NCBI GenBank assembly: GCA_963705255.1
Contig: OY970061.1
Location: forward strand, 2,160,778-2,192,777
Source of the DNA: an uncultured Methanoregulaceae archaeon
GTDB taxonomy: Archaea > Halobacteriota > Methanomicrobia > Methanomicrobiales > Methanospirillaceae
Direction of reading: 5' to 3'
Length of the DNA stretch: 32,000 nucleotides
Shown: piece after piece, positions 1 to 6,000 of the stretch
Layout of the letters: every line of letters begins with the position of its first letter
How positions within the stretch are numbered: the first letter of the stretch is position 1
Position numbers: made by a program

Positions 1-3000
1 CCTCAGCATCCCCACACCGGTAATCCTCGGTGAACCCGTACTTCCGGCCGAACCGCCGTGCGAATTCCTTTTCAGTCTCTTCGATCACCTTCACCGAGTC
101 CCGCATCGAGCGCTCCATATCCCAGCGGAACCTGAACTGCTGGTCCGGGCCGGTGAGTCCCCCGTACCCGGCCGGATTGTTCACATCTATGGCATGCGGC
201 AGGTGCATCGGGGGAATGAAATCCCCGATATCCACCGTTTCAAGCGGCTGCATGATATGGGAGAGCAGGAACCCGTCGAGGTTTACCATCACCGGCAGGA
301 GGACGTCGTTATGTTCTGCGATCCGGAATGCCATCAGGGCTGCGTCATAGGCTTCCTGCACGGTGCTGACATAGACCTGCAGCCAGCCGGTGTCCCGCTC
401 CTGCATGGCGTCCGTGTGCTCCGCCCAGATGTTCCAGCCGGGCCCGAGCGAGCGGTTGACGTTGGCCATGACCACGGGAAGTCTCGCGCCGGCAGCCCAG
501 TTGGTCATCTCATGCATGTAGAGGAGCCCGTGGGAGCTGGTTGCCGTAAAGGTGCGGACCCCGGTGATGCTCGCGCCGATACAGGCCGCCATGGCGGAAT
601 GCTCGCTCTCGACCGGAATGTACCGGGCCTTCAGTTCTCCGCTGGACACGAACTCCGCGATCTGTTCCACGATCTCGGTCTGCGGGGTGATGGGGTAGGC
701 TGCGATCACTTCGGGCTGTGCCTGCTTTACTGCTTCGGCCACCGCCTTGTTGCCGGTCGCGATCTTCTTCATGGTGCCGCCTCCTCTGCTGCGAGTTTCT
801 GCAGGTTCCTGGTGAGCCGCTGCCGGAGAATCTCAACAGTCTTCGGATCGATCCCCTTGAACCTCCCCTGGGGTGCAAGATATTCCTCGAGAGGTACCGG
901 TTTTTTTATTGCCGCTTTCGACTGTGGTCCGATGGTCAGCTTCCCGTACTCGCGCTCGTAGAGCACCCACATGCCCGATCTGACGGCAAGCTTGCCCATC
1001 TCGACGCTCTTTTCCGTGGAATAACGCCAGCCGGGCGGGCACGGGGCAAGGACGTGGATGAATGTCGGGCCGCGGAAAGTAAGGGCTTTTGCGACCTTCT
1101 TGAACAGGTCCTGCGGGTAGGCAGCGCACGCGGTGGCCTGGTATGGAGGTTCATGGGCGGCGATGATCCTGTCGATGTCCTTCTTCACATCGGTTTTTCC
1201 GGTGGGTGTCGTCGTTGTTTTCGCACCGAGCGGCGTCGCGCTGGACCGCTGCATACCGGTATTGCCGTAGGCCTCGTTGTCATAACAGATGTAGAGGAAA
1301 TCGGTACCCCGCTCAAAGGCGCCTGACATGGACTGGATGCCGATATCGAGCGTCCCCCCGTCGCCAGCGTACACGATTACGTTCGTCTTTTTTCCTGCCG
1401 CCCGGAACGCGTTGCTCATGCCGCTGGCGCATGCAGTCTGCCGCACCGAACGCGATGTTGTAGACCGGGATATTGAAGGCGGTATTCGGGTAGATTCCCT
1501 GGATGACACTTGTACAGCAGGCAGGCACGACCAGCACGGTGTCGGGCCCTGCCGCCTTGAGCACGTACCGCAGTGCGAGCGAATCGCTGCACCCGGCACA
1601 AGCCGAAGTACATTTCAGGATATATTCTTCTTTCGGGATTTCGGCGATAGTATCCAACTCCTGCAGTGAATGAACGGGACTGGTGAAAGCGACAAGACGG
1701 TCGCGGTTCTATCATTATTTATCATCATGATTCATGAAAAAAGTATCATAGTTGAGCTGGAGGGGCAGGGGACTTTGGACGGTGGCAATGTTCAGGTTTT
1801 TAGGAATGTCGAGAAAGAGCGATTGAAGATTATTGAGATGCGGCAATGTGACGCGGAAAAGATGGGGATTTGTCGGAGTGCTCTAAAGTACATCAAGGAT
1901 AGGATACGAAAAGGAAAAAGATTAATTTCAAAACACTGGCAGTGAGGCGATTGTTAGCGGTGATGAATTAAAAAAATATTTAATATTTTGTTAGCCTTCT
2001 TAATTTATGTATCAAATATCCCCACGCGATTTTTCTAAATTAAATCGTTCCATAAGTAACGAGATTGAGAAGGTTTTATTAAAGTTTGTTTCCGATGGTA
2101 AAATCAAAGTAGTTCCGATGAACCAAAACCCACTACCGGAGAGAAGAGACCGCGCGGCAGGCCGAAGAAAATTAAAACTGATGTGGCTACCCCAAAAGTA
2201 CCGAAGAAGCGAGGGAGACCTACCAAAATTAAAGGTGAAGAAAATATCAAAATCGTAAAACCTAAAACAAAACCAAAAGCAAAACCGAAAAATTGAATTG
2301 GGCGGCTAGAATTTCTAATAGATTTGAGTGCTAACATGGATCAAAATCTAAAATATTGCCCCAATTGTGATTGTAAAATTGATACTGAGTCACAAGAATG
2401 TCCTCGTTGCTATACAAAAGTTTCCCGCAACCTCGAAAATTTTCTTTTAGCGAAATACAAATTATTTACTTTGATAGGGATTTTTGGAGCACTTTCAATT
2501 TATTTGTTAAATAATGCGATCCCAGCGAGTAATCCATCTAATCCATTTCTGCATGCGGGCAGTCTGTTAAGTTTAATGATTGTCATTATTTTATCGATTA
2601 TTTGTATTTGGGATTTAGTTCATTACATTAAAATTGAGGAGCCGGATTACAAGGAATTCCCTTGGTCCACACTGATCAAGAGTATCAGGACTTTACCTGC
2701 GATAATAATGTTTTTTGTATTTTTTATTTGCTTAATTTCAATTTTAGCTATCTATGTATTGTCTAATCCACAAATGGCTCAAGTTTTCATCTTTACTTTG
2801 TTTATTATTGTTTTTTTACTCATTTTCATCGGAACTTACTACATATATCGGTATTGTTTGGAAAAAGTGACAGATTTATTAAACGAAAAACTAAAAGGGA
2901 AAATGTCTGATATCGCGGTAAGAAGAGTAATTTTAGTGATATTTGGAGTGTTTTCTTTTTTTCTGATTCTTTCAGTAGCTCAGATGATTCAGACTCAAAT

Positions 3001-6000
3001 CTCAGGTACTTCCTATGAATTCCGGAAATCTTACAATGTCCTCGGTCGGAATAATTATTTTCATAACATTACTGATTGATTGCCTAAATCTAATGTATAA
3101 ACGTCTGATTTTTGTCCCTTCAGAAACTTCTATCAATACCGAATCTGTGTTAAATGCGTCTTCAAAGATTATTGAACCAATCTATGAGGTTGCGGCACAA
3201 GAAATTATTAAGCCTAAAGAAATAATCAAAAATGACGTAAATTCAGCGAATTTAGACGCTCACAAAAATGATTTTTTTAGCAAATTCTATAAATCCTATA
3301 TTTTACCGTATGCAAAACCAATTATGAGATTTGTAAAGTATTTCGTTGCAATAATAATTTTTGTGTATTTTGCGATGGAATACGAATCTAAATTACTTCC
3401 GAATAGCTCAATTGATCTCGTCGTGGCAGTAATTGGCGGAGTAATTTCAGGATTTATTATCATCTTCTTTCAAAAGGGAATGGGAGAATGATATTATCAG
3501 AGGATCAAATTTCATTATTTATCGAATTTATTTTTTATTTTTCGCGTCCTGAGTACCTATATTTTACAACGCAGAATCATAAAACGGGTCAGAAAGATCA
3601 GAATCTATTAAGTAATATTTTCGTTGCCAGTCATGAAATAAATCGGATATTATTTTCAAAAATTGTTCACTAAAGGGAATAAAATCTTCTCGTAACTCTG
3701 AATATTCTTTAACAATTTCCCCCATCTGCGATTTTATTACAAATGATCTCAGGGCATCTCTGTTCTCGTTAAAAAAATGGTACATGTGTGGTAATTCGTT
3801 AAGTTTTCCATTAAGTTTTGCATCTGCTATCGCTAATGTAAATACGCACTCATAATCGTCAACATTCGGAAATTTTGATTCCGATTGATTAAGGGAATCA
3901 CATAAATTTTTGAAATCATTCCAAATCACTTCTTTTTCATTAAAAATTTTCATATTGATTTCACGAAGTCTTTTCGAATAATTATCATATTCGATACTAA
4001 GATTTTTGATTTCCTCAACATTTCTCTGCAAAATTGGATCAAAATCATGAATTTGTCTCTTTAAAAAGTAATTTGGGGAATCCGGAAAAATAATTCTATT
4101 TTCCGGTTTAACCTTTTGATCGCATAAGAATCTTAAAATGTTATATCCCCGTTGAAAAAAATCTTTATCGTCATTTAATTTTCGGATTATAGGTAAAAAA
4201 ATGTTCTTTGCCATATCCTTAATTACTCTGCTCTCACGGTCGAATTGATTTATTTCGACAAGCTTCCGGTTCGCGTCTGCTATAACATATGTTGCGGATA
4301 TCGATATTCCGGTTATAATAAGAAGCATTGTTGTTGCGCCAGCTTGTATCCACACTGGAAGTGTAGAGCGATCTGATTGAATAAACCCCCATAACATAAT
4401 TAAGCCAACACACCCTGTTGCTAGAATAAACGCATAGTGAATACGAAGAGTACCTTCGATTGTCAAATAAAAAATAGCTGATACGGCTATGAAGAGACCG
4501 ATAAAGATGATCAAATCCACAGATTCAATTATCATTTGTCCACATCAGATATCCAAGACTTACCTTTTATAAATTTTCTATCCCATTTTTCCGGCCTTTA
4601 CTAATATCCGGTTCTGTTTATTTCCGGGCTTTTAATTCCAATTATATGAAAATTGACGAAATGTAATTATTTACGATCCCCCTTACTAAAATTAATAAAT
4701 TAACTTTAAATAGAGGATTATCAAAAAAAAAGATCCATGTTATTTTTAAATGGCAAAAAAATAAAATTAGCTCTCTTTTTCATTCTCTAATTATAGGAAT
4801 CTTCCTTTCATTTTCAATTGCCATCTCTATCGCAAACCCGAACAATTTAATCGATATTAAAAAATTAGAGCCAGCGATTCAAACCTTAGATAATGCAAGT
4901 ATTACGATTGGAGCAATAATCCTCGCAATAATATTTGCAATAATTACAATAGTTAAGACAAATTTACAAAATGGCAAGGAAATCGATGATAAGAAAATAG
5001 GATTTTTTATGTTTTTAGCTGCATTGATGATTTTTGCCATTATTTTAGGGTTATGCCCCTGTACCAATCGTATTTTGCTAAATTGAGTGATGCAACTGGC
5101 ACCTGCGCATTGTCAATCGGTTTGGTTATTTTTGTATTATTTATTTTAGGCCCTCTGTTTTATTTTGGTGAGGGGGATTTTTTATTGAAATAGATCTTTT
5201 TGAAAAGAGCGCGCCGCCACTCAAGCAACTTTTCAGAACAGTATGATATCACATGTGATGGGTCACAATTTACAAGATAACTATAACCCAAAGTAAACGT
5301 GCGGGCATAGGGATTCGAACCCAGATAACGAGCAAGATCGATTGGTTATAATTGTGGTAAAAATGTGTGAAAATGGGGTTTTCTCATCTTTCAAAGGTTG
5401 CGATGCACGCCGCCGCAGTCGAAGTTATCACTTCTCCACAGCCTTCGGCTGTTCCCGAAGGGACGCCCCCGCAGCGACCTCAACGACTAAAGAAATAAAA
5501 CTGCCGTGACCCGCCGTGCTTCATCCGTACTGGATGAAGCAAGTCGAAGAACCTGACGGTTCTTCTCCAGTCAATCCTCGCAGTTGCGACGATTGACTCC
5601 CCGGAGAGGCCCTGAGGCGGGGAACTCTCCTGAGTACTCCCAAGCTCAAACAACCTGATGATTCGATCATGAATCCAGTTTCAGATCAAACAATGGCAAG
5701 CCCTTTTACAAAAAAATTCCGGATTCCGGCTCGCAAAAAAAATCGCGATCGCTCGTGCGCCAAAAAAATTTCAATCGACCCCTCACCCCCCGCTTGAAAT
5801 TTTTCAATCGACCCTTGATTGAATGTTCCGGACCATCACGCCGGAGAACGAAAAATATTGTAGCATGTACATGCATTTTGTAGCATAATTATCCAATTGT
5901 AGTCTTACAAACTAACACCTCATGATCGCGATGAAAAAAGACGAACGTGAAAGTCACGTTGACTTTCATGTGAGGCTGCTGAAAATACAATGCATTTTCA

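Follow-up and report, generated by a model that had tools for sequence, protein, structure and literature searches.

Integrase-less genomic islands that are flanked by att sites, so-called cis-mobilizable elements (CIMEs), are non-autonomous cargo elements. Integron cassettes are short, promoter-poor and exchangeable cargo and are associated with IntI and folded attC sites. Here we describe an AT-rich inserted island that we compared with both kinds of element. It was found within a stretch of 32,000 nucleotides (nt) of an uncultured Methanoregulaceae archaeon (GenBank assembly GCA_963705255.1, contig OY970061.1, positions 2,160,778 to 2,192,777 of the forward strand), in the following called the window. 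The island occupies positions 1751 to 5299, between the upstream region of a gene for a 2-oxoacid:ferredoxin oxidoreductase (por) and a module with the gene of a Csa3-like CARF regulator. It is an insertion, it has its ends in common with sister islands, no recombinase is encoded in it, and homologues of its two large proteins occur in defence contexts or in defence-type fusions. With a probability of roughly 55% we consider it to be a horizontally acquired, non-autonomous and exchangeable defence-type cassette with a tRNA-derived end. The locus is a variation on known genomic islands and defence cassettes.

As in CIMEs, the ends are conserved, the cargo is variable, a recombinase of its own is lacking and near-identical copies are found in diverged strains. 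The island differs from CIMEs in that no repeated att core was detected at its ends and that neither a partner element nor a recombinase was identified. Like integron cassettes, the islands are short and promoter-poor with exchangeable cargo, and one contig with a sister island (L099) carries two AT-rich islands in series with repeated flanks. However, there is no IntI gene, the two ends are unlike, the five genes of the window island lie on both strands, and no attC-like folded site exists: the region of the right-end module with its tRNA fragment folded no better than shuffled sequences (z of -1.0). With integrative elements that target tRNA genes the island shares the foreign composition, a boundary resembling a tRNA 3' end that faces the element as at attL, and an adjoining arm with homology to the DNA that flanks an intact tRNA-Leu(CAA) gene of a different Methanoregula. 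In contrast to such elements it possesses no integrase, no intact tRNA gene and no direct repeat at the far end, it is only 3.5 kb long and lies away from a tRNA locus, and its tRNA piece belongs to a module that sister islands carry with them at other sites. From transposons and miniature inverted-repeat transposable elements it is set apart by the lack of terminal inverted repeats and of a target-site duplication.

Composition, boundaries and recent arrival of the island

The host of the window is a Methanoregula-type methanogen; its Kef-type antiporter (positions 7813-8955) has 70-89% identity to the counterparts in 80 Methanoregula/Methanoregulaceae genomes. The island was delimited by its composition, by breakpoints of homology and by near-identical copies in other assemblies. 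For positions 1751-5299 a guanine-plus-cytosine (GC) content of 0.330 was obtained, compared to 0.591 for the left flank and 0.553 for positions 6106-32000. Each 500-nt window inside the island had a GC content of 0.358 or less, while those outside had a mean of 0.555 with a standard deviation of 0.043 and a minimum of 0.40. The sharp composition drop noted in a preliminary description of this DNA is therefore real: it corresponds to a block of 33% GC in a chromosome of 55-59% GC. At the left junction (~1750) the similarity to the por upstream region of relatives stops at 1748-1760. The right junction is located at 5298/5300, and similarity to relatives picks up again at about 7047, upstream of trkA. 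Open reading frames (ORFs) fill 87% of the island, corresponding to five genes.

The order por (here the gene of the beta subunit), trkA-C and kef is kept in the loci of 60 related Methanoregula species. The gap between the por start and trkA measures 255-412 nt in 25 of these species and 0.6-7 kb in the remainder. No homologue of an island protein is encoded in the por-trkA interval in any of the 60 related species, and no tRNA gene was found in the interval of these relatives. This comparison had been proposed in the preliminary description in order to recognise genes that are core and simply AT-rich. The same genes are not present at the same locus in the relatives but are missing from the interval in 60 of 60 comparable species. 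The AT-rich block is an insertion, foreign and not core. The por-trkA interval was also considered as a defence hotspot; this idea was dropped since the inserts elsewhere are ordinary genes of normal GC content.

The Csa3-like CARF gene together with its spacer (about 5440-7047) forms a separate module, which is also present in L006, L040, L054, L070 and L079. It follows directly after por, with no island in between, in the complete chromosome to which L006 belongs. Because the CARF module abuts por there, the island can be placed between the por promoter region and this module. In the short-read contigs L054, L070 and L079 the sequence terminates on that side of the CARF gene which faces the island in the window: L054 and L079 end within about 100 nt of its 3' end and L070 about 800 nt beyond it, where the contig end (positions 1-150) is AT-rich. 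These breaks suggest that variable or hard-to-assemble DNA is found at the position of the island in other species too.

Three further public assemblies contain the island, namely L001 (covering window positions 1757-6105), L002 (1756-5734) and L003 (2749-4762). Between positions 1757 and 5297, L001 differs from the window by one substitution and three single-base indels. For the adjacent 808 nt (5298-6105) 47 differences were counted, i.e. 5.8%. The break in identity at 5298 falls exactly on a tRNA-like piece that is described below. A near-identical island next to diverged non-coding DNA is indicative of a recent transfer or sweep of the island. The island is foreign and recent, and it is not viral (see below).

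Independent assemblies show the island together with the spacer, such that a chimera at the right junction is ruled out. A Methanoregula contig fused to AT-rich DNA of a different organism through an assembly chimera or contamination would fit the very sharp composition break and the indel errors that the assembly clearly has. Moreover, L001 and L002 both stop at 1756/1757, and no independent contig crosses the left junction. Against this explanation, the right junction into the GC-rich spacer is spanned by the independent contigs L001 and L002, two sister islands (L099, L101) carry the same end modules with GC-rich DNA on both sides, and a gene homologous to one of the island genes resides in an AT-rich patch within a GC-rich contig of 105 kb (L088). 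We regard a chimera as extremely improbable.

Several genes of the island had initially been described as decayed. The ORFs of 251 and 158 amino acids (aa) are, however, a single 384-aa gene in L001 and L002, which is split in the window by an extra G at position 3005. This base occurs in the window only and is missing from L001, L002 and L003. The frame of the AT-hook gene is restored when A4 is changed to A5 at 2125-2128, which gives a product of 96 aa that contains two RGRP cores. A protein of 152 aa results from the fragments at 4737-5193 when T5 is changed to T6 (4776-4780) and C4 to C5 (5056-5059). All frameshifts of the island are one-base homopolymer changes. Compared to their orthologues, core genes of the window are frameshifted too in at least five places (porB at ~1436, others at ~12560, ~13780, ~17944 and ~20662), at a rate similar to that of the island. 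Related contigs bear Flye-style names. We infer a long-read assembly with homopolymer noise, which leaves the case for gene decay weak. Most likely the frameshifts in the island are homopolymer errors of such an assembly, and the five cargo genes are probably intact. For apparent pseudogenes in long-read metagenome-assembled genomes in general, the frameshift rates of neighbouring core genes should be compared before decay is called.

Shared end modules and mobility

The right boundary of the island is marked by a 23-mer resembling a tRNA 3' end (GGGTTCGAATCCCTATGCCCGCA, positions 5300-5322, minus strand). It comprises a T arm (GGGTTCGAATCCC) followed by TATGCCCGCA, and its 3' end abuts the island. 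Within the window the 23-mer occurs a single time even if 3 mismatches are allowed, with 0 occurrences expected by chance; the copy in L001 has 3 substitutions. Four marine contigs (L084-L087) have real tRNA-Met(CAT) genes that end exactly with a 22-mer of this sequence, an identity which shows that the sequence is compatible with a tRNA. The 22-mer was not found in 80 Methanoregula loci or in IMG/VR. The marine contigs have 32-36% GC and their tRNA-Met(CAT) gene is unusual; near that of L085 a P-loop kinase-like protein is encoded, and this contig may be viral. A marine tRNA-Met was not adopted as the source, since a chance match of 10 variable bases is not improbable among 241 million contigs and since these contigs are unrelated low-GC marine DNA.

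The tRNA-like piece does not stand by itself. It is part of a right-end module (Rm) of ~95 nt (5228-5323, minus strand), in which it is joined by about 70 nt containing TTTGGGTTATAG and the palindrome TCACATGTGATATCA. At the other end a left-end module (Lm) of about 100 nt (1777-1878, plus strand) overlaps a small ORF resembling a helix-turn-helix (HTH) protein and is common to the contigs L099/L100 and L101. L099 is a GC-rich contig with an unrelated locus that was reached via a homologue of this 72-aa ORF. It holds a 2-kb AT-rich island (8.2-10.3 kb) that opens with Lm and closes with Rm and that encodes an SLFN_AlbA_2 protein and an HTH_40 protein. In L101, 0.8 kb of AT-rich cargo with the gene of a 157-aa membrane protein is placed between the two modules. 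Lm of the window is 87% identical to that of L099 over 89 nt (window 1778-1866; blastn E 5e-25) and 80% identical to that of L101 over 96 nt (blastn E 5e-19). For Rm the corresponding values were 73% over 70 nt (window 5253-5322, with the tRNA-like piece included) and 82% over 62 nt, and nhmmer gave E values of 1e-21 to 1e-24. Lm and Rm are unrelated to each other. In the window, in L099 and in L101 they have the same relative orientation around AT-rich DNA that is embedded in GC-rich DNA. In 1.55 Mb of loci no further copies of Lm or Rm were found with nhmmer profiles; weak matches resembling them in L040 and L093 (E 0.003-0.08) were disregarded.

A fourth contig (L030) contains an intact tRNA-Leu(CAA) gene with an Rm-like flank behind it, in which the palindromic block is identical; AT-rich cargo is absent there. 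Because L099, L101 and L030 all share Rm, the tRNA-like piece belongs to a conserved end module. Most simply, Rm would be an attL-type arm, inherited from an ancestor that had integrated 3' of tRNA-Leu(CAA). A tRNA 3' fragment at the right edge had been noticed from the beginning. It is tRNA-derived and marks the exact boundary, but as a 23-mer within the end module and not as the classic scar of tRNA-targeted integration: a repeat partner is lacking, and the 3' end of the fragment faces the island, like attL and not like a displaced attR. A 9-bp inverted repeat reported at this edge turned out to be two 7-mers (CACAATT/AATTGTG and TATAACC/GGTTATA), which are contiguous in the right arm and 11 nt apart in the left arm, with no exact 8- or 9-mer.

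Two further AT-rich regions were seen in contigs of this group. L099 contains a second AT-rich island without Lm and Rm, which encodes a polytopic membrane protein of 185 aa. A Csa3-like gene separates the two islands of this contig, and both islands have copies of one pair of flanks at their boundaries, with ~57 nt for X1/X2 (8151-8207 / 11521-11576) and ~44 nt for Y1/Y2 (10354-10397 / 12345-12389). In L040 a protein of 423 aa without annotation is encoded in an AT-rich patch (250-1750, 34-37% GC), which lies about 2 kb from a Csa3-like gene; the similarity of the patch to the junction sequences of the window is weak and non-significant.

Between the two junction regions of the window there is no direct k-mer of 7 nt or more, and the sole inverted match is a single 7-mer. 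No tRNA gene was detected in the 32 kb by ARAGORN, and no RNA family in the island by Rfam at E values up to 1. The ORFs of the island contain no recombinase or integrase domain according to Pfam, PHROGs and NCBIfam. Elsewhere in the window inspection revealed no integrase-like long ORF, these ORFs not having been scanned against Pfam. The absence of an intact tRNA, a direct-repeat partner and an integrase from the window, as stated in the preliminary description, was hence confirmed.

That description had also raised the possibility of a remnant provirus or plasmid. A decayed provirus or integrated plasmid that entered via a tRNA gene and then lost its integrase and most of its genes would account for the tRNA-3'-like sequence exactly at the boundary, for the homology of Rm to the flank of an intact tRNA-Leu gene, for the AT-rich composition and for a small HTH ORF next to a DNA-binding AT-hook protein. 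However, among the island genes there are no viral or plasmid hallmarks (capsid, terminase, replication, partition), and no capsid, replication or integrase gene is present despite ORFs on 87% of the island. None of the island proteins had a PHROG match better than E 9e-4. In the search of virus and plasmid databases that had been proposed, neither of the two large proteins had relatives in IMG/VR, in the phages of INPHARED or in the plasmids of PLSDB, and a comparison of the exact cores of Lm and Rm with IMG/VR gave no match. If homopolymer noise is taken into account, the genes look intact, and the near-identity between strains argues for a recent arrival over an old decay. In addition, the same ends bound 0.8-3.5 kb of unrelated cargo, which fits a cassette better than parallel decay. 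A provirus or plasmid remnant is therefore quite unlikely.

The cassette family that we propose would consist of an Lm of ~100 nt overlapping a small HTH-like ORF, an Rm of ~95 nt, and cargo that differs between islands. Its members may move in trans, either by means of a recombinase encoded elsewhere or by recombination in the shared ends. Profiles of Lm and Rm provide a searchable signature for small islands which integrase-based island finders and virus predictors would miss, in methanogens whose defence systems and mobile elements are poorly charted.

Cargo proteins and their defence associations

All ORFs of the initial description were found, i.e. the 72-aa ORF, the AT-hook protein, the pair of 251 and 158 aa, the 323-aa protein and the small membrane ORFs. 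The proteins had been called unrecognisable, in agreement with zero Pfam, PHROGs, PADLOC and NCBIfam families among the cargo.

The gene of the 323-aa membrane protein (3564-4535, minus strand) encodes three N-terminal transmembrane (TM) helices followed by an all-helical soluble domain of ~225 aa that belongs to an unnamed family. A word-indexed search provided five clusters of homologues at 47-54% identity, and a full HMMER scan of 1.8 billion representatives provided 43. In five contigs (L090, L091, L094-L096) the homologue is the last gene of an Hma (helicase-methylase-ATPase) operon and starts 1-2 nt after hmaC. Payne et al. (bioRxiv 10.1101/2024.01.29.577857) showed that genes added to Hma systems often serve in defence, and the principle of guilt by embedding was taken from this work. 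The homologues resemble such Hma-embedded candidates in that they share one operon with hmaA, hmaB and hmaC; they differ in having no match to an HEC/PDC model (PADLOC 2.0), and no Hma system lies beside the window gene. In L092 the homologue comes after DruE-like, ShosA-like and PDC-S02/Mrr genes.

The soluble domain is furthermore found fused to a KAP nucleoside triphosphatase (NTPase)/PifA-like module (P0017), to TIR_2 (P0018) and to CBS plus TIR_2 (P0019). A domain of ~225 aa that is combined with three TM helices, TIR, CBS plus TIR or a KAP/PifA-like NTPase is similar to the architecture of sensor-effector proteins (TIR-TM proteins and KAP/PifA-type Abi proteins). In contrast to those, the domain has no name and no structural or sequence match, and the roles of the parts are conjectural. 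By analogy with other proteins in which this domain is combined with TIR or KAP-NTPase effectors, the 323-aa protein may act as a one-protein sensor-effector, in which the C-terminal domain would detect infection and the TM helices would damage the membrane.

The second large protein is a Zn-ribbon polytopic membrane protein (2336-3491, plus strand; 384 aa in L001/L002) with about 8 hydrophobic segments. About ten homologues were found (P0006-P0015). One of them (L088) is situated beside AbiU/AIPR and PemK and has 82% nucleotide identity over the gene, in the AT-rich patch of the 105-kb contig mentioned above. Others lie beside AbiLi/PDC-M38 (L093) and beside HicAB (L097), and in all three contigs the spot of the homologue is locally AT-rich. 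The family has no name in any source, and a conserved small upstream partner gene was not seen.

From these homologue contexts and domain fusions, a membrane-centred accessory module such as exclusion or abortive infection, as suggested in the preliminary description, is favoured. The evidence from defence neighbours comprises about 8 contexts. Judged by association and architecture, the odds that the cargo acts in antiviral defence or exclusion are close to even. If it does, the two unnamed families would be candidate new archaeal antiviral effectors, one with a domain that has been recombined with TIR, KAP-NTPase and transmembrane effectors.

The island could instead hold ordinary strain-specific accessory genes, e.g. 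for envelope or stress membrane proteins, that were transferred and have no defence role. The ends would then be a conserved small regulator gene and a terminator or tRNA-flank motif and not mobility sites. In agreement with this, no known defence model was matched, and in other species ordinary variable genes are found between por and trkA. Lm is a coding-like part of a small ORF that also occurs in the AT-rich contigs L102 and L103, and in L030 Rm lies beside a normal tRNA gene without AT-rich cargo. It is less easily reconciled with the recurrence of both large families beside Hma, DruE, ShosA, Mrr, AbiU, AbiL, HicAB and PemK on several unrelated contigs, with fusions of the 323-aa domain to TIR and KAP/PifA-like NTPases that are typical of immune proteins, and with a Csa3-like gene adjoining two of the three islands at unrelated loci. 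We consider a set of ordinary accessory genes to be rather unlikely.

A number of observations weigh against the defence-type cassette. Concerning the site, inserts between por and trkA in other species code for multi-PAS histidine kinases, a 5'-nucleotidase and PPK2 at normal GC content, and the site is variable and not a dedicated defence hotspot. Concerning mobility, the cassette family with both ends has three members only; a recombinase, a repeat core, an empty site or a circular junction was not seen for the islands; and Rm could be a native tRNA-Leu flank that was dragged along. Three frameshifts of the island are common to the window, L001 and L002 and could thus be real. Concerning function, PADLOC assigned no family to the 72-aa, 83-aa, 384-aa and 323-aa proteins, the 323-aa and 384-aa families never occur together in the homologue contexts seen, and the Hma-associated homologues are placed after hmaC and not between hma genes. 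The profile and structure searches that had been suggested were run on the large proteins and provided no family: AlphaFold2 on shallow alignments gave poor models for both (pLDDT 62 and 56), and in the PDB a Foldseek search with the 323-aa model only and a profile search of the PDB sequences returned nothing beyond coiled-coil noise. The sensor-effector mechanism, finally, is deduced purely from domain architecture.

The further cargo of the window consists of the HTH protein, the AT-hook protein and a 4TM protein. The 72-aa ORF (1727-1945, plus strand) has an HTH-like C-terminus (...IIEMRQCDAEKMGICRSALKYIKDRIRKGK). Since the ORF begins within the por upstream region of the host, its true start is uncertain. 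It has no Pfam match and four distant homologues only (P0059-P0062). The gene of the AT-hook protein (2007-2296, plus strand) consists, as assembled, of an 83-aa ORF (2007-2258) and an out-of-frame AT-hook tail; the direct repeat D4 corresponds to two AT-hook units. The gene of the four-TM membrane protein (4737-5193, plus strand) occupies three frames as assembled, and its repaired product contains four hydrophobic segments.

The Csa3-like regulator and its spacer

Csa3 proteins are transcription factors in Sulfolobales that bind cyclic tetra-adenylate (cA4) (PMC8844856, PMC8699464). Next to the island, a gene at 6106-6984 (minus strand) encodes a Csa3-like CARF and winged-helix regulator of 292 aa. 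Like the Csa3 factors, this protein has a full-length match to the Csa3 model of PADLOC (positions 1-233 of 237, E 2.8e-37) and a C-terminal winged helix, for which Pfam matches (HTH_27/PadR-type) at residues 228-279 are below the cut-off. Unlike for these factors, there is no cas gene and no CRISPR array within the 32 kb, the cas genes having been looked for by inspection of the long ORFs, and with 19.9 bits the protein stays below the cut-off of TIGR01884 (60.2). The orphan CARF regulator of the preliminary description was thereby identified as Csa3-like. In L099 the gene directly past Rm is also Csa3-like (1.2e-37), with 31% identity to the 292-aa protein. As a result, two of the three islands, in the window and in L099, adjoin such a gene at unrelated loci.

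The non-coding spacer of the CARF module (5323-6105) is homologous in L070, L006 and L040 and includes the DNA that is 5.8% divergent in L001. At about 5840-5925 it contains three TTGTAG(C/G) repeats about 21 nt apart and a 12-bp palindrome (GCATGTACATGC). This block lies downstream of the Csa3-like gene. It has 83-90% identity in L070, L006 and L040, which exceeds the conservation of the neighbouring proteins. Since neither RNA covariation nor structure support was obtained, the block looks like an operator, and we treat it as a putative one. A regulatory link between the Csa3-like protein and the adjacent cassettes would be plausible.

A more far-reaching model would combine these elements into a platform. 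Recombinase-less AT-rich islands with a fixed Lm and a tRNA-Leu-derived Rm would be docked beside Csa3-like genes and swapped among strains. On sensing a nucleotide second messenger, the regulator would activate the neighbouring membrane or TIR-type effectors via conserved operator repeats, namely the TTGTAG repeats and the TCACATGTGA palindrome, and in the 323-aa protein the C-terminal domain would represent a new module for the sensing of infection. As a whole we hold this model to be improbable. If true, it would constitute CRISPR-independent CARF signalling at the level of transcription that controls swappable immune effectors. The recurrence of a Csa3-like regulator beside islands away from a CRISPR locus provides a testable case for CARF-controlled non-Cas effectors.

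Two minor observations were made outside of the island. At 14772-14831 a C/D-box small RNA-like match to the Rfam family sR7 was found with 27.7 bits (gathering score 37; E 0.017). A perfect 16-nt inverted match connects positions 1379-1394 within porB with positions 5933-5948 in the spacer of the CARF module (ACGTTCGTCTTTTTTC / GAAAAAAGACGAACGT), and the arm at 5933-5948 overlaps a hairpin at 5944-5968.

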